Below are positions 156 to 19,700 of a stretch of DNA of 64,000 nt, in pieces; the stretch's first letter is position 1, and each line of letters starts with the position of its first letter. Position numbers and translations under genes: made by a program. Source of the stretch: Rhina ancylostomus (lineage: Eukaryota); the NCBI GenBank assembly GCA_030265395.1, contig JARFYF010000063.1, positions 64,105,654 to 64,169,653 of the forward strand, given 5' to 3'. Under the pieces are notes generated by a model. The model was given only the letters and a program-made list of their open reading frames with translations, did not search any database and was not told the origin of the DNA.

Positions 156-1664
156 CTTTTTGGCATTAGAAAAAGCAAAGTATTTCTGATGCTGTAAATC
201 TGAAATTTAAAAAAAAGCATAATATTGGAAACATTCAATTCTGTCAGGATCTGTGGATATGCAGTTAATGTTTTGTTTTAATCTTAATTGTAGCTTGATG
301 TTGTAAATTGTCAAAAATGATAATACGCAGCTTTACATTAACAGTCATGTGAACCTTAATATGTTGAGAATTTATATAGAGCATATTACCAATAGGCCAC
401 ATTCAAAGAATTATTTTGAAGTCCATGTATTGCTATGTAGGTAAAAGTTAAATGATGGGTAGGGAGAGGAATAAAAAAGGCACTGGGGTTACCTCTTAAG
501 CAAAATGAGATGTAGAACGGTGAGTGGGATGGATTGGAAATTACTTGAATGTTGGATTGGTAGCTTTGTAAAAGTATTTTTTTTAGGATTTTTTGTTTTG
601 AAATTGAGAGGAAATTATTTAATCAAGTCTTCTGGAGAGTTGACTGAGCACTGGTTTATGCCTGCATTACTACTTTTGTCCCTGTGATTTCTGTATGGGG
701 GAGAGGGAAATATAATGTAGCCATGCCAATCAAAAAAATGTGAAATGTAATGTATTTTGCCAGTTCTGTCCAGTGGGGTGAAAAATAAACTCACTGGCTT
801 CAACTACCAGGTATTGGTCAATGAGTGGCCACTATTCATGGATATGTACTGAGGATGCATTAATTGCTTATTAACGCCCCTACAATATCTAAGCACTTTG
901 GACATCTTTTGAAATCTGGAGCTACTCAGTGATGCTGATGTCTGGATGCCACTACTGTATTTTAAAAAGCTGGTTAGGTGTATTGCATGAGTTGCAGTTT
1001 TTTTCCATTCTGCTCTAGTGAAGTGCCTGTCATCTCAAACACTCGCATTGCAGAGATTTTAAAATTTGTGATATGATGCCTTGGGATATGTATTTTTGTA
1101 ACTAGGAAAAAAGATATTGTCATCAAATGAATTTGAGCCCAACTTCAAGATTATGGTCTAACTTGCCCTCAGAAACCATGATTCCCTGAGACCTGTCAAT
1201 TTGTCTTCAAAAATCAAACAACACTCTTTGCTCTTGTATTATTTAGTTTCTCCACATAGCATTTCAAGGGTTTGGAGATTTGGAAAGGGCTGGCTTTGGC
1301 ATTATTGCCTTATTGATGGAAAAACCTGAGATTAGCACACCAAAATTTGTTGACACCAGCCACTTGCGATGTTCATAGATTAATGATTGCTGTACATTGC
1401 CACTGCTGTTTCATGATGTACATCAGCTTAGTCACTGCACATATCTAATAATATCTGATTGGAGCGATGTATTACATGAGCATGTTGACCCAGTCCATAC
1501 TTAATAGTCCCCCTCTAGTGGGTTGACCAGATTTCAACTTTCTACACTGTTATTTTGACCAAAACTCATAACAGATGGGTTTTGAAGTTTTGTAGTGCAA
1601 CTGAATCAGAACCTATAAATCAATATCACTAATTCTTTTATCCTTCTGTTTTAGGTAAGCTAAC

Positions 1665-10700: not shown

Positions 10701-13700
10701 AACAAAAGGAGTCTAAAGTTGTGGGAAAGGGCTATAGAAGCTTGGGCCATCTTCATTAGTGCATTGCATGCAAGGGATCTAATAGTTGCTCAAAGCTATA
10801 AGGGGTTTTGATAACATCAGTTGGGGAGAATTATTTTCACTGGTTGACTTGAGCAAATTTAGCTTGAATTAAATGTAATCAGCTACGGAGCAAAGGGTGA
10901 GGAATGAAGAATAGATTTTCTTGTTGCAGATTTCCCTATCTGTAACAATGGCAGAAGCAGTATCTCTAAACACATTTAGAAAAAGAATTGGATAACTATT
11001 TGGAAATAGATATTATTAGATAGTATATGGAGAAGTTGGGGAATGGACTTATGGGAGTTTCCTTCAGAGTTTGAATTGGCATGTTTTCTTTGAAATTCTG
11101 TAGTGCTGTTACCAGAAGTTTCATATTTATGCAAGGTCTGTCTGAACATTGGGACTGAAGTAATACTTTACACAGGCAGATTATTGCTTCTGCAAATTTT
11201 GCTCTTTTCATCAAGTATTTGTTGGATGGAGGAAATGACTTGTTTTGTTACTTTATTTCGGGCTTTTCTGAATATCCCAAAGTGCTTTCCAACAATAAAT
11301 ATAATTAGTGGTCAAATGCTATTGTACTTTCTTGTTAAGGATCATTGGTCCTCAAAAGTGATTTATGTATTTTCTGCACAATGTAAAAAGTATAATGAAA
11401 GATCAATAATGTTAATCTGTTTCATGTTACCAGGGAATTAGATGGCACTGTCCCACCATGTCTGACTGCTGGCCAGCTGGAAGCTCAGCGCCTCCTTTCC
11501 AATTTGACCTCAAATGAAGCCCAAGGGAAGGAGAGTGAAACTCGCCACATGATATACGAGCGAGACAACCAGAGTTACCATGGTTTGGATAATGATAGCA
11601 CACGATCAACTGCAGTGGATGATACTGTGGTGAAATTTCTCAATGACCAATTAGCACTTGATGCCCTGCACAACTCTGCACTTTACAAAACTTTGAGCCG
11701 AGATACACTGGGACAGAAAGGTGATGGCATCAAAGGCTTCCATACTAAGGTAGTGAGCATTGACGTGGATGCAAAGAGTGAACGACCATCTGAGCAGTCT
11801 CAGCTGTCCTCCCCGAGTTCCACATCTGAGTCGGTGATGCAGAAACTAGAGATTATGCGCAGGAAGCAACATGATGATAAACTTGAAAAACTGAAAGAGC
11901 GGATTAGGAAGCAACGGGAACATTCAGAGGAGCCTGTTGAGAGGGACCGGCAGCTAAACTTCCATGAGTTACCTATTGCACTTGGTGTAGGTACTGCAGT
12001 TCCAACCACCAAAGTGAGGAAGGTTGCTGTAGCACCACCTGCTCCATCATATAAAGGTATGACTGACGTTCCTACGCTGTTTTTAAATTCCTTTCAGTTT
12101 CCCTTTCCCTTTTCTGATTCATGGTTGTGGTAGGATACAAGCAAACCTTGTGCATGCAAGTGAAGGAGGCAGCTTTGGCTTCCAGGATCCTGCTGATGTA
12201 TACTTGCTAAGTAATTATTGTTATAATGTGAGAACTGTGACAGACAAATTGTGCACAGTGATTTCTCTCAAACAGCAGTATGATTTTGAATGGGTAACGT
12301 AGAGTTTTTTGAAGGATGAATATTGTCTAGGTTACAAGAGAGGACCCTCCTGCTCTTAGAGTGATGGAATATTTTGCACCACTTGAGTGAGCAGCAGATA
12401 TTCTCTCATTTTAAAAGATGGTGCCTTCATCAAGTTTGCCTTAGTACTTCAGTGGAACATCAGCTGAATAATGGCAGCCCAGTGCAGTATATGTAACACT
12501 CCAGCAACCTATGTTCAGTCTTGACCTGAGTACTGTGTGTACGATGTTTTTTGTGTTCTCCCTGAGACTGAGAGTTTTCCCCTTGGTGCTACAGTTTTCT
12601 CCCACATACCATAGGTGTGTTAGTATGTTAATTGAGCACTGTAACTTGTCCCTAGTGTAGGTGGGTAGCTGAAAAATATGGGTGAATTTTTTTTTAATTA
12701 CTTAGTGTGGTAACAGGCCCTTCCGGCCCAACGAGTCCATGCCACCCATTTTAAACCCCAAATTATCCTACCCGTATGTCTTTGGTATGTGGGAGGAAAC
12801 CGGAGCACCTGGAGGAAACCTACGCAGACACGGGAGAACGCACAAACTCCTTACAGGCAGCAGCAGGAATTGAACCTGGGTCGCTGGTGCTGTAATAGTG
12901 TTCTGCTAACCATTACGCTACCGTGCTGCCCTTAATTGATGAGAGAATAGGTTGCAGAGAGAACTCTGGGTATATTTTGAAAACTAGCATGGACCAGATA
13001 GGCCAAATGGCCGCCACCCATGTCATAAGTAAATATGTGAAATCTCTGGAGTGGGACTGGAACCTGCTCATCACGAACTGAGGTGAGATTGTCAGCCACT
13101 GAGCCACAGCTGTCAGCAGTAAATTGTGTAACAACCTCTCAGTACAATTATAGAGATTAAATCCCTGCCATGCATTGGCAATGATGTGTATCAACTTGCA
13201 TTCTACAATCATAGTGTAATATTTGTCAAATTGGAGTATGAATGTGACTTTATACCTGTACCATTTTCATTTTTTGTGCCATTTAATTTAGGGTGACTGT
13301 AAAAAAAAAAGTAATGAGGCATAGTCACACTGAGCAACAGTAGTTTGAAATCTGATGTTTAAAACTTTAGCTTCAGAAGAACACAGACTTTCAATAAGAA
13401 AAATTGGAAAGGAAAACAAGTGTTCATTGATATGAAAGCAAATTGATGTTTATCCCAGCATCTGAGGGGCCACTTTTTGTAAACCTGACAAATGTGCAAC
13501 TGACTTTCTCTGTGACAGGTTGACTTGCCTGGGCCGTTCCAGTGTATTAGTTCTGGTCTAAATGTGATGTCCATACTTTATTGCCAGCAAAAGGAAAAGA
13601 TCAAAGTATCAAACTTTAAAATCAGTATAATAATGTAATTTTAATACTGGCTGAGTAAACCAGAGCCCTACACTGAACAGCAGATACGAGTTCTGATTCC

Positions 13701-16700
13701 GTGATGTTCGTGAGGAATATAATGCATAGAAAGCTTCTTTCATCAGTTTTCATTTATTTTAGTAGAACTGTTTGGTTATTAGGTTATTAACCTGTAACCT
13801 TAACTCGGTCTTCTCTCTTCACAACTACCATCTGAACTATTGCTAGCATTTCATATTTCCATTGACTAATGTGTTCTGGATCTCCCAGTTCAAGCAAGCG
13901 TTGTTTTTCTTTTGAAAAACAAATAAAACTGCAGAAGCTGGAATCTGAAACAAAAACAGAAAATGCTAGAAGAACTCAGCCATTCAAGCAGTATCTACGG
14001 AAAGAGAAATCGGTTAACATTTGGATAAGGGACCCTTCATCAGAAATGTGAACTGGTTTCACTTTCTACAGATGCTGCTTGACCAGCTGATTTCAGCATT
14101 TTCAGGAGAAAGATAATGTCCTGTATTCAGTGTATTCTAACCTTTACTTTCATTACAGGTTTCAATCCCACAGAGACAAAAATTCGGACTCCTGATGGCA
14201 AGGTGTGGTGTGAAGATGAAATGCACAATATTAGCAAGGATATGTACCGTGACTTCACACTCCAGTTGGCAGGTAAGAAACCTTCTCTGATTCGGGTTAT
14301 TGCAATATGAGGGGACTGTTCTTCCTCTTGATTATGTCTCACCATTTTTAAGATCCTGGTGTTATCCCAATTTTAAGTTCCCACTCCTGCCTGCTGCAAA
14401 ATCACACAGTGTCACAGATTAATTCTGTTAAAATGTGTTTATTAGCAGTGTGCTACCAGGGAGAATTCTCCTCTGAATCTTGTGCAGAGTCTTTATTGGA
14501 GGTATCCACAATACANNNNNNNNNNNNNNNNNNNNNNNNNNNNNNNNNNNNNNNNNNNNNNNNNNNNNNNNNNNNNNNNNNNNNNNNNNNNNNNNNNNNN
14601 NNNNNNNNNNNNNNNCGTTGATGTACAGGTTTAAGTCTGCTGACTGGAAGGCCTTATCCGAAAGGTCTGGATGGGGTGTAGTCAAAAAGTGGTTTTGCAT
14701 TAAACAGTCATCTGGTGGATCTTCAAGATCCTCAGATGGGGCTTCTAGAAATGTGGCAGGGTTCATAGTGGTGCAGTATGCAAAAGTGAGGAGTGGTTAT
14801 TCAGAAGCGCTACCTCATATCTGTTTAAGCGGGCTTGGATAAGGTGTTACGTCTGATGGGAGGTCAAGAGTGCTGTTACCGTGTGGGAGAAATAAACAAC
14901 TACTGACTGTTGCAGGGTTATATTGGAGGCTGCTGTTACCAGGGAGTAGATCGCTGGAAGCATCTGTGAGCATGGCGGAAGTCCCCTAGCAACTGGGTCC
15001 AGCCAAGTAGAGTAATATGCCACTGGTCTTTTTCTATCCCCATGTGTTTGAGTAAGGACGGCTGTAGCGCAGTCCTCCAGGACATTCACAAAAAGCTGAA
15101 ATGGGTGATCATATAGAGGGCATCCCAGGGCCGGGGAGCTGGCAAGGGCCTGTTTGAGCTTATCAAAGGCCTCCTTTTGTTCCTCTAAGTTCACAAGGTC
15201 CCACAGACTGGCTTGAAGCCAGGGGTGTGAGGTGCTTAGTAAGGAGGGCCACATTAGGTAGCCATTGCCTGCAGAAATTTACAATATCAAAGAAGGTGCA
15301 CATGCCCTTCGGTGGAGAGGGTGGTAGGGTAGCAATAATGTGTGTAATACATTCAGGAGTGAGCTGCTGCTCAGTTGCACTTAAAAGGGTGCCTAGAAAT
15401 TTCACCTGGCACTGCGTTTGCCATACTTTCTGTCCCCAAGAATGGAGTAAGTTAAGTAAAATCCTCTGGGTTGGTTTTACGGTTGGGCGCCTGAATAATG
15501 GTTAGGCAATTCTCCTGAGGCTTCCAAGGGGTGTATATTTGGATCGTAGGAATAGTGCTTGCTTGGGCTGGATCAGGATTGGGAGCACTCCTATTGGGGA
15601 ACTGTCTTTTAGCCTTGGCTCCCTTTACCTCATTCAACATAGGTGATAGGTTAGGATCTTTAGGGTCATTATTATCAATGGTAGAATCAGAGTCATAATT
15701 GGTGTCTGACTGAGGATCTACTAAAGGTCTGTCCCCTACCAAAATGTTGCATCGCTTGTCTGTGGCCTTAGAACCATTCATATGCAGGCTTCCTCTCTGT
15801 CTAAGCTGATTTCTAGTTTGGGATGCAATAGGGCCATGGAATTGTCCTTGGGACGGCACTTGGCTAGCAGTCATTGGTGGTGAGAGCAGAACAGTTTGCA
15901 GACTAGTTACATTATATGGGGGTGGCAGTGAAATTGGGGGGTAAATAGGGGCTGTGTGTCGGACCATCCAATCCTCCTCATTTTCATCCGTATCATTACT
16001 TTGGAACAACAGGGGCATGCCAGACATGTTAGGAGGTACCTCCACTTTATCCTTATTTCTCTATTTCTATTCCTACATTTTTCCTTCTTTTCCTGGTCTA
16101 CCCTTTCCCTCTCCCTTCTTTGTGCATTATGTTCCCAACTACTCTGTTTAGATCTATTTGTCAGGTCTTCGGCCATTTTTCTCCAAGTAGACATTAATAT
16201 TTTCCAGTTTTCTCCTGTATTGTTTTCCCAAATTGCCTTTTCTGCCTTTAGACACTTACCCACATCCCAAGTTCCTCCTAATGGCCATATTTCATTTCCC
16301 AATTTCTTATTGAGGCATACTGATAATTTACGGAAGTTATTCTCATTATTCAACCATAAGGTACAAATCGCTACAATTATCTATAATATCAGTCTCTTTC
16401 CTTCACCCACTTCAGGTTCCTGACCTTCCCGTGGGGGATTTCCCCTCTTGAACCGGTCTAAGGCAGGGTGGTAGTACTGGAGAACCGATCTGAAACCTTA
16501 AAACTCAAAACCTTGAAAATCACAACCTTAACACCCAAAACTGGGGACTCAAGCCCCTTACCGTTATTACTCCGAGGACTCGAACCTCAAATAATTTATC
16601 TGGAGGACTGTAACCTCCTTTTACCTGTGGCACTCAGACAGGTTCGCAAGGAGTCCATCAGAGGATATTCGATAAGCGAAAGAATCAATCAGGTGTCCGA

Positions 16701-19700
16701 CTCCCTAAGAGGGATCAAGGTGAATCTTACCTTGTGGGCCCTTCCATATCAGGTAGTCGTTAACCCCGTCGATCGCTCACGCCGCTTCGGAGACCTTGTC
16801 TTGGACTCCTGGCTGGCTCGCTAAATTGTTATCCCAATTTTAAGTTCCCACTCCTGCCTGCTGCAAAATCACACAGTGCCACAGATTAATTCTGTTAAAA
16901 CACAATATGCTGGCAGGGAGAATTCTCCTCTGACTCTCATGAAGAGTCTTTATCGGAGGTCTCCACAATACAGGGGGGCAGACATTAATTTATACAGTCC
17001 ATGTCACACATTTAAACAATATGACTACATAGATTTCAATTGGGGAGCCTAAGATACAGACACAACCATCACACTTATTGTTTAGGACAAAACCTCACTT
17101 ATTGTTTTGTATAATTGGCTTACAATCAAGTTCCAGGCATAGTAATCACCAACTGGTTCACGTGGTCTTGAGTCAGGGGCTTGCACGTGGTATTTTTTCA
17201 TTAGTTATATGTACGGTCACAATTTCTTAACCCTTTACTTCCTCACTGGTTCTGCATCTCTGTCTCATTTGCTTCTGTTGACTCTATATTCCTTGATATC
17301 TGTACCCAAGGTAAACCAAATTGATTAACTGCAGCACACACAATCTTGTAGATAGTTCTAGATTTTCATCTTCCTCTGCCAAAAAATGCTTATTGATGCT
17401 AAGTAACCTACCTCTACTTTTAAAATGAACTGTGGTGGAAGACGTGTTCTAATGATTGGTGTGATGTGCTGGACATGAATCTGTTAAATTTTTCAGCCAT
17501 CGTGGCTTTTGAATGAAATGACTAGTTTCGAAGTAATTTCAGAATTTTTCAATTCTGAATCTCTGTCTTCCATCATTCCTTTGCTCATCTAAACTATATT
17601 AGCTCCTGATTTAAGCATTGCTTTGTTTTTAAAATTCTCAGACTGGTCAGACTAGTTTTCTAGTCCCTCAGTGGCTTTGTTTCTCTACCCCCCCCCCTCC
17701 CCCAAACCTTCTTTGAAATCTCCAGTTCAAAGATTCAGTTAGCTACACTTCAATTCTGGACTGATTTTAACTCATTCACCATTGATGAGCAAGTATTCAA
17801 TGGACGAAGCTCTAAATTCTGGAATTTTCTCCCAAAATCTATGTAGCTTTCTTTCTCTAAATAATCGGCTCTAATGTGGTTCAGTATAGTGCCTTGTAAA
17901 TTTCATTACATTAAAAGCACTTTATAAATATAATGAATATATGGGTTTTAGTCTTTCTTGCCAAATGGAGGATGTTAAAAATAGTCTAAAATGAATGCTG
18001 TGGTTTCAGTATAAGCAGAGTTGGAGTTCAGCATTAATAAAGAAGAGCAGAGATCTGTACAGGGTGTTCAAGTAGATTGATTAAATCTCAACAGTGCTGC
18101 TGGCATGGGTTGGCTTTTTTTGGTTTTGGCTTTAGATGCTTTAGGTGATCAGAAACATAACAAGGAGAGATTGTTTACATGTTACATCTGTTCACCAGTA
18201 TTGGTAGGCATGTCTGACAGCTTACAGCAAGTTGTATTTAAATAGCACCCTTGACATTAAAAGTCCCTAAGGTGCATTGCAATCACAGCTGAGGGGAAAA
18301 GCTTCTCTCTACCCTATCTATGGCCCTTATAATTTTGTGTACTGTACCTCTAATTGGTATTAAAACAGGTTGGTCACTGTGGAAGATTTTAAGGAGTATC
18401 TGAGAAAAGTGACAGTGGGGAGATAAATTTGGGGAGCTAATTGCAGAGCTTGGGGGCAACTAGCTGAAGGCATAGTTCATAATGGCAAAATAATGCAGAC
18501 TTGCAAAAACCCATAATTGAAAGAGACAAACTTCTGAGTTTGTGACTCAAGGACGTTAGAGACTGGGACAGTCAAGACCACAGATTTGAAGACCTGACTA
18601 AAGGCATTTAAAAGTTAATGTTGGTGAAGGTGAATGTGATGTGATGCAGCTTGGAAAGGCAGTATGTGAGCAGCAGTTTTCATGGAGAATGACGTGAAAG
18701 GTTAGATGGGAGAGCAAAAGTAAACTCATGATATCCTATTTGTGAATTAGCCTCCTGTCATGGTTCTGAGTTCTGGCCCTCATTTGGCTCCACTAGTGTC
18801 TTGTTGTCCAGCACATGGATTCCATGCTGGACTGATTGCATAACAATACACACCTGAGCCCCATCAGGGGNNNNNNNNNNNNNNNNNNNNNNNNNNNNNN
18901 NNNNNNNNNNNNNNNNNNNNNNNNNNNNNNNNNNNNNNNNNNNNNNNNNNNNNNNNNNNNNNNNNNNNNNNNNNNNNNNNNNNNNNNNNNNNNNNNNNNN
19001 NNNNNNNNNNNNNNNNNNNNNNNNNNNNNNNNNNNNNNNNNNNNNNNNNNNNNNNNNNNNNNNNNNNNNNNNNNNNNNNNNNNNNNNNNNNNNNNNNNNN
19101 NNNNNNNNNNNNNNNNNNNNNNNNNNNNNNNNNNNNNNNNNNNNNNNNNNNNNNNNNNNNNNNCAGATTTTAACCACCTGGATGAGAAAGCAGTTTTTTT
19201 CAATTCCCCTTATTTTAAATCAATATGCTTAAGGCTTAGACACTTCTTTGCTAAGGGAAAAGTTTCTCACTGTCTACCCTTTCAGTGCCCATAATTTTGT
19301 ATACCTCAATCAGGTCCCCTCTCAGCCTTTTGGCCTTTTGAAGAAGAACAGTCTCTGCCTATTCAGTGCCTCTTCATAGCTGAAATGCTCTTTTCCAGGC
19401 AATATCCTGATGAACTTCTGCACAGTCTCCAGTGCAATCACATTGTTCTGTAAAGTGGCAGCCAGAACTACACACAATACTCTGTGACCTAACTAATATT
19501 TAATGTGTTATATCATAACCTCCTTGCTCTTGTATTCTGTGCCCTGGCTACTGCGTGGCTTTCTTAATCACTTTATCTACCTAGGCTGCTGCTTCAGGGA
19601 TCCTTGGGCAGGTGTACCAAATCCCCCTCTCCCTCAGTGCTTCAGAGGGGACTACCATTTATTGTGTTTATCCAAGCCATAATGATCTTCCTAAGCGACA

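Follow-up and report, generated by a model that had tools for sequence, protein, structure and literature searches.

Tandem T-arm-like units in the leader of a class I-type endogenous retrovirus of Rhina ancylostomus as a candidate dimerisation or packaging element

The window, by which we mean the whole stretch of 64,000 nucleotides of Rhina ancylostomus DNA that was analysed, contains an endogenous retrovirus (ERV) whose leader carries three small stem-loops resembling the T-arm of tRNA, and the question raised by this locus is what such a repeat could be doing between the PBS and gag. A first-pass annotation had described three hairpins on the minus strand, about 30 nt apart, with stems that differ in sequence and yet all pair, and this description holds. 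Unit 1 (16602..16618) has a 5-bp stem, GGAGG/CCUCC, with five Watson-Crick pairs and the loop UUACAGU. Unit 2 (16574..16588) has the stem GAGG/CCUC, that is, four pairs plus a U.G pair, around UUCGAGU, and is indeed, as had been claimed for the middle hairpin, an exact copy of the tRNA T-loop/B-box core. Unit 3 (16543..16557) has the stem GGGG/CCCC, with four pairs, and a decayed loop, CUUGAGU; at position 16553 in this unit the letter differs in nearly all covering contigs of sequencing run X8 (depth 340/348). The loop starts are spaced 29 and 31 nt, and the array is located between the PBS (16806-16823) and a gag-like frame that extends from about 16380 downwards.

A scan of the 511-nt leader for stems of at least four Watson-Crick pairs closing 7-nt loops returned five hairpins, and the three of these that end in AGT are units 1–3. 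Three such hairpins within 100 nt, sharing any 3-nt loop end, were found in 0/5000 dinucleotide shuffles, such that the suspicion that shuffled leaders might contain them equally often can be dismissed; two hairpins with the AGT loop end occurred in 3/5000. It should be stressed that this test overstates the independence of the units, because they are tandem relatives of each other, and that the result shows repetition, not selection. The stability of the 101-nt array region is not unusual (z −1.33), and the in-context stem pair probabilities are 0.89, 0.00 and 0.01 for units 1, 2 and 3, respectively. The pairing potential of the three units is thus not the same as their predicted fold, in which only unit 1 is expected to form.

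The array is part of an element that extends over 14360-17245 on the minus strand, as delimited by an LTR repeat and a target duplication. The 5' LTR (16827..17245, minus strand) is 419 bp long, has the TG...CA ends, and is recognised by its repeat with 14360-14515; the 3' LTR is present in its 3' part only (14360..14515, minus strand), where it adjoins a 100-N assembly gap (14516-14615). The comparable parts of the two LTRs are 85% identical over 156 columns. The 4-bp duplication CCAG is found at 17246-17249 and 14356-14359, and the matching of related reads and contigs from other organisms ends at 17245-17246, at the edge of the 5' LTR. The PBS (16806..16823, minus strand) is that of tRNA-Arg(ACG), with one mismatch in the window copy; it is complementary to 3/3 host genes called tRNA-Arg(acg) by ARAGORN, and is kept in 35 family copies. 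A broken gag-like frame (15907..16380, minus strand) extends from about 16380 downwards; it gave no match in a Pfam search, and we take it to resemble a matrix protein. The pol fragment (14847..15278, minus strand), which is RT connection/RNase H-like, matches Pfam PF17919 with E 6e-16, and its best PDB matches are 8wus, 4hkq, 5dmq and 4mh8 (E about 3e-22), annotated as Gag-Pol or 'Reverse transcriptase/ribonuclease H p80' and presumably MLV/XMRV enzymes.

An MLV-type integrase C-terminus (Pfam MLVIN_C) was furthermore found in the family copy L151, and two frog pol-like proteins that carry MLVIN_C are the nearest named relatives, at 44% identity. Because of the tRNA PBS, the MLV-type pol matches, MLVIN_C and the frog relatives, the element is classified from its sequence as a class I ERV (gamma/epsilon-like). 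It has the TG...CA LTRs, the 4-bp target duplication, the tRNA-Arg(ACG) PBS and the MLV-type pol of this class, the assignment being made on fragmentary copies in which no env was identified. The window copy of this old family is internally deleted and decayed, and so are the 16 longer family stretches examined. In a genome search for relatives, in which 40 of 200 candidates were scored, the copies are 75–89% identical, and related sequence is present in four sequencing runs of three other organisms; a search of IMG/VR gave no relative of the pol fragment. Elsewhere in the window, a 244-aa stop-to-stop frame on the plus strand (11399-12133) looks like a host exon, presumably CEP350-like; if it is one, the provirus would lie antisense within an intron.

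We then considered the leaders of the whole family. Of 69 loci, those lacking either anchor or containing N were dropped, which left 43 distinct arrays flanked on both sides, and units were picked by allowing up to two mismatches to the 11-nt core, which gave 120 units in the 43 leaders. By this rule there are 0–5 units per leader, with 2–4 in 35/43 and at least one in 42/43. The loop TTCGAGT is exact in 62 of the 120 units and CpG-type transition variants of it account for 30 more, while the first and third loops of the window occur only 2 and 1 times, respectively. The ending in AGU that had caught the eye of the first-pass annotation, although present in all three loops, is therefore the decayed face of one loop, UUCGAGU, which is conserved as a whole, and the three stems of the window are decayed copies of a family-wide repeat consisting of a G-rich/C-rich stem (GGGG/CCCC or GAGG/CCUC) around it.

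The loop bases U54, U55, A58 and U60 are kept in 114–118 of the 120 units of this selection-biased set, and the sixth loop base is G in 112/120. The conservation of the core is inflated, because the units were picked by core match and the loci L031-L050 were chosen by two perfect cores. The two outer stem pairs, which were not used for picking, are able to pair in 109/120 and 106/120 units. The spacers vary between 6 and 23 nt and are 52% alike, whereas the units reach 83% and their outer four bases 72%. Genome-wide, the tandem perfect core has 20 matches, against 1 for the control, and all 20 align to the window element; the triple core has 3 matches, all of the window ERV family. In the species' own genome no tandem core was found in which loop place 6 is A, C or T.

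Concerning changes in the stem, the third pair is G-C in 77, A-U in 25, G.U in 7 and A.C in 1 of the 120 units. A tree built from 39 flanks separates the copies of the A-U type from the G-C-only ones by one supported split, with one deleted copy as the exception. Since the types separate at one subfamily split, this amounts to a single two-sided change. In the comparison of leader copies called for by the first-pass annotation, the units are conserved across the family, and covariation comes down to one two-sided stem change at one split, in copies that have decayed neutrally and hold this one informative change.

The location of the array relative to the splice donors may bear on its role. 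The first donor, AAG/GTAAGA (16716..16734, minus strand, exon end 16731), lies within a 6-bp hairpin, and the second, CAG/GTAA (16619..16627, minus strand, exon end 16625), lies 6 nt before unit 1. The commonest contexts of the latter in 40 leaders are CAG/GTAAGAG (19) and CAG/GTAAGAA (5). In RNA run X22, from another organism, 14 reads leave the reference at 16731 and 21 at 16625; these reads are mostly less than 95% identical, and the counts are among the best-supported loose ends listed. The read ends suggest splicing at both donors, in which case the array would be present only in unspliced RNA. A drop in RNA read depth over the array was also considered as evidence for splicing and was discarded, as the same drop is seen in the contigs of run X8. 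Among the matches listed, no RNA-holding sequencing runs were found, the shares all being below 0.2. In the window subfamily, a donor-like ACG/GTAAG also precedes unit 3, and the last unit is followed by a T4 run. An 8-mer located some 20 nt 5' of the array (16639..16646, minus strand) has complementarity to the 5' T-stem/T-loop of the primer tRNA; no other 8-mer outside the PBS is complementary to tRNA-Arg(ACG). This 8-mer is partly complementary to the units, with which it could pair, and presumably resembles a primer activation signal; it is exact in 23/43 leaders, but overlaps the anchor used to find them.

A parallel to this array is found in mouse VL30. A 26-nt VL30 vesicle-enrichment motif printed in PMC8615591 contains GTGGG-TTCGAGT-CCCAC, and PMC8472637 describes tandem copies of the motif and reports that the fragment bearing them is enriched about 600-fold in vesicles from human cells lacking VL30. 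The authors of the latter study state that the motif matches the Psi of vectors and read the repeats as one long dsRNA hairpin; the main text of PMC8472637 does not contain the word 'tRNA'. VL30 RNA is, according to PMC4378196, abundantly packaged by MLV.

When metagenomes were scanned for three cores in tandem, 33 loci were found, of which 5 contain the published 26-mer and the remaining 28 consist of unrelated or unclassified repeats. Four VL30 loci cover the leader; in these, 4–5 units follow the PBS, the donor and a GACG pair, and in three of the four the array is followed by a gag-like ATG. Over 18 bases there is full identity between the VL30 unit and the T-arm of a host gene annotated as tRNA-Arg(tct), and 25/27 bases of the unit agree with L205, a host tRNA-like stretch that ARAGORN does not call. 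L204, L206, L208 and L209 are intron-bearing tRNA-Arg(TCT)-like genes that are called inconsistently or missed by ARAGORN in its bacterial setting. When seven distinct window, VL30 and host units are aligned, a hand-picked set that serves for description only, 97% of the cells are paired and two-sided changes are seen at three pairs, at one of these only via wobble; a comparison of the window with the VL30 units shows such changes at two stem places.

The two arrays are alike in the loop UUCGAGU, in the G-rich/C-rich stem, in being tandem with a period of 30–38 nt, and in lying between the donor and a gag-like start. In both, the first unit is often UUAGAGU, which is seen in 4/4 VL30 loci covering it, while A is found at that third loop place in 10 of the 13 window-subfamily copies that keep unit 1. 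They differ in that the VL30 stem is GUGGG/CCCAC with 5 bp rather than GGGG/CCCC or GAGG/CCUC, in the spacers and the PBS, and in that the window array abuts the donor whereas the VL30 array lies about 270 nt from it. Only 11–13 nt of the 26-nt VL30 consensus are shared by the window family. The first donor of the window (16721-16731, minus strand) has 11 bases identical to the VL30 donor (L127:533-543), but outside the unit core and this 11-nt donor the leaders do not align, and common descent with VL30 is therefore not demonstrated.

VL30 also has the GACG pair upstream of its array, a pair that was not found in the window family, and one VL30 locus (L140) gives a weak RF00374 match (E 7.7). 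The suggestion that T-loops are used in place of GACG loops accordingly fails for VL30, which has both. Moreover, the primers of the published 'motif-only' amplicon enclose the GACG pair and the array in 3/3 VL30 loci tested, such that the vesicle enrichment is not assignable to the repeats alone. The amplicon corresponds to L127:617-982, and L114 and L140 likewise have the GACG hairpin pair between the primers together with the repeats.

Tandem cores also occur outside retroelements. IMG/VR gave 60 tandem matches, none of them recognised as retroviral, and in all 10 that were checked a tRNA or tmRNA gene contains one of the units; the donor-plus-array pattern gave 2 matches, both already among the tandem-match contigs. 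In prokaryote genomes, 37 loci with the tandem 11-mer were found. In the phage contigs (L051-L110), a second T-arm-like hairpin is often present within about 30 nt after a tRNA gene; in 36/60 loci both units have at least 4 pairs, and among the 9 inspected several show differing stems. An AT-rich non-coding metagenome contig, L122, holds five TTCGAGT-type units with diverged spacers (1473-1559, minus strand), which is possibly the leader of another LTR element, with no ORF evidence.

We now consider how the units would fold. The first-pass annotation had envisaged separate T-loops, and this part of the proposal is disfavoured by nearest-neighbour folding, which prefers unit-to-unit duplexes. 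Using ViennaRNA, which does not include a T-loop bonus term, a separate hairpin (stem probability of at least 0.5) is predicted in 3/34 undecayed units and in 0/4 VL30 units, and unit-to-unit pairing beats the all-hairpin folds by 2–5 kcal/mol per unit in 6/8 arrays. The preference arises because UUCGAG is self-complementary, which gives an imperfect 14-bp duplex. UUCGAGU is in the top 7–9% of the 16,384 possible 7-nt loops for dimer preference, which we regard as a moderate preference within this model. The ordinary T-loop UUCGAAU is likewise top-ranked, while UUAGAGU is not, its self-pairing being +1.0 kcal/mol as compared to −4.5 kcal/mol for UUCGAGU. The pyrimidine-rich-G motif, a presumed NC-site, has an only slightly raised density in the window family, of 5.7 per 100 nt against 4.0 in shuffles, and shows no excess in VL30.

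The position of the array, its varying copy number with diverged spacers, the stem pairing that reaches beyond the B-box and the recurrence of the loop in VL30 are all direct observations. The explanation that we put first, albeit with somewhat less than even confidence, is that the units are a tandem T-arm-type repeat acting in the genome dimerisation/packaging region of a class I retrovirus, as an RNA hairpin/duplex element. Only unspliced genomic RNA would carry the array, and each unit would, according to the folding model, alternate between two states, a T-loop hairpin of its own and, owing to the self-complementary UUCGAG, a 14-bp duplex formed with a second unit. If two genomes paired in register, this would create a multivalent dimer link, by analogy with the pseudo-palindromic SL-A/SL-B of MLV, and the exposed loop Gs would be offered to nucleocapsid. 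The unit itself probably originated from a packaged tRNA that was captured by template switching and amplified by slippage.

A number of points weigh against a dimer role. The first unit is mostly UUAGAGU, which in the calculations lacks self-pairing; the dimer preference is common to the ordinary T-loop; the G-C/A-U stem change counts as one event; the tandem 11-mer is also present in unrelated DNA, as seen in the metagenome and prokaryote scans; and VL30 keeps its GACG pair, with the vesicle fragment spanning both pair and array. What is left of the packaging or dimerisation idea of the first-pass annotation is hence a T-arm-like and conserved unit, with a two-sided stem change, a location 3' of the donors and a parallel in VL30, while the separate folding of the T-loops is disfavoured by a model that has no term for this motif.

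The T-arm likeness could alternatively reflect true tRNA mimicry, in which a host T-arm protein would bind or modify the units in their T-loop fold and so route the RNA to assembly sites or exosomes. The readers considered here were export, vesicle sorting and m1A/pseudouridine enzymes. We find this unlikely, although the close match of the VL30 unit to a host tRNA-type T-arm and the retention of U54, U55, A58 and U60 would follow from it, as would the UUAGAGU variant, in which the U-A closure of the T-loop is retained but the palindrome and the C of the B-box are lost. It is also in line with the ability of isolated T-loop hairpins to fold (10.1101/2022.12.26.521914), with the vesicle enrichment of the VL30 repeat fragment (PMC8472637) and with the tRNA mimic held by the HIV-1 leader (PMC5689005). 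These arguments are countered by the small number of units predicted to form a hairpin and by the energetic cost of the all-hairpin folds, calculated as it is without a T-loop bonus, by the window family having no D-loop, no acceptor arm and no Rfam tRNA match, and by the GACG pair being included in the VL30 vesicle fragment. That the array would instead be a neutral by-product, namely a functionless captured T-arm that was amplified through slippage of the reverse transcriptase where the leader tolerates it, seems to us quite unlikely. The freely varying copy number, the single two-sided change within the family and the tandem 11-mer repeats in unrelated genomes are what one would expect in this case, and ZFERV provides a precedent with 9 direct repeats in 517 bp (PMC3382231), but the 15-nt unit stayed while the spacers changed in both length and sequence, the A-U change is found on both sides with A.C intermediates nearly absent, and the loop UUCGAGU recurs in the matching leader stretch of VL30.

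Two further possibilities involve the immediate surroundings of the units and their DNA sequence. Unit 1 could act against the second donor and limit its use, thereby preserving unspliced RNA. Its stem begins 6 nt after the donor, it is the sole hairpin predicted to form, the second donor appears to be used according to the X22 reads, and in the window subfamily unit 3 is preceded by a donor-like sequence too; nevertheless, with the VL30 array being about 270 nt from its donor, and with the T-loop sequence and the repetition left unexplained, we judge splicing control to be improbable. The least probable reading, and in our view a very improbable one, is that the units are B-boxes operating at the DNA level, as an internal Pol III promoter, as suggested in the first-pass annotation, or as a TFIIIC-bound insulator. 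The core does fit the B-box consensus GGTTCRANYCY, type 2 Pol III promoters are in use in BLV (PMC12498455), and in the window subfamily the last unit is followed by a T4 run. However, the best A-box 40–74 nt upstream has at least 2 mismatches in 40/40 leaders, while 126/800 shuffles reach one mismatch or fewer; the stem pairing is kept outside the B-box, and the first-unit variant alters the B-box C. In addition, no sharp read starts or ends were seen among those listed, which is a weak test given that the libraries are of long RNA and from another organism.

A wider reading would be that class I retroelements of distant vertebrates repeatedly captured a tRNA T-arm and amplified it as an array in the packaging region. 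This would constitute a second RNA sorting signal, beside or instead of the GACG loops, which a host or Gag surface would recognise in the form of T-loops or which would link dimers through self-pairing, and the VL30 vesicle motif would be such a tRNA-Arg T-arm array. We consider this generalisation doubtful, but if it is true, the missing determinant of the extreme enrichment of VL30 in exosomes and virions would be named. The VL30 repeat and palindromic leader hairpins are already known, whereas our searches of the open-access literature gave no publication in which the VL30 motif is interpreted as a T-arm or T-arm arrays are reported from ERV leaders, and no description of a packaging signal for class I lineages of the fish type. 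Few retroviral genera have known packaging signals, and the T-arm array offers, as judged by sequence, a concrete candidate in a family without the GACG pair. The published VL30 repeat, hitherto interpreted as generic dsRNA, agrees with a tRNA T-arm letter for letter, and the sorting of VL30 into vesicles thereby becomes a loop-versus-stem question that can be posed on short RNAs.

It is instructive to compare the array with known systems that share one or another of its features. The anticodon loop is mimicked by the tRNA-like element (TLE) of HIV-1, which represents tRNA mimicry in a retroviral leader (PMC5689005). The TLE is a single structure located in the PBS domain and binds LysRS, whereas the array of the window is a T-arm repeat located 3' of the donors. 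The type 2 Pol III promoters of BLV have in common with the units a B-box-like sequence within a retroviral genome (PMC12498455), but the window family has neither the A-box nor the pre-miRNA hairpins.

As for the tRNA T-arm itself, the units have its UUCRA-NY seven-base loop closed by G-C pairs (10.1101/2022.12.26.521914), this loop standing on a stem and being exact in 62/120 units and in unit 2 of the window. According to the same source, isolated T-loop hairpins can adopt the T-loop fold, with loop bases six and seven flipped out. The units differ from a T-arm in that their stem is mostly 4 bp, in that they have no D-loop partner and are unmodified as transcribed, and in that they are repeated.

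A further comparison is with the core encapsidation signal of gammaretroviruses (MLV SL-A to SL-D; RF00374), with which the array shares the position 3' of the donor. In the window family, whose array is located where Psi elements lie, the GACG tetraloop pair was not found, a single GACG with 3 closing pairs being present in 1/35 leaders, and an Rfam scan of the window leader and 8 other copies gave no RF00374 at E<=10, no tRNA and no relevant family. The units also differ from the MLV signal in being near-identical tandem copies and in having the 7-nt tRNA loop. In MLV, palindromic hairpins are converted to intermolecular duplexes (PMC5874298), and for the units of the window the predicted counterpart of this conversion is the imperfect 14-bp duplex.
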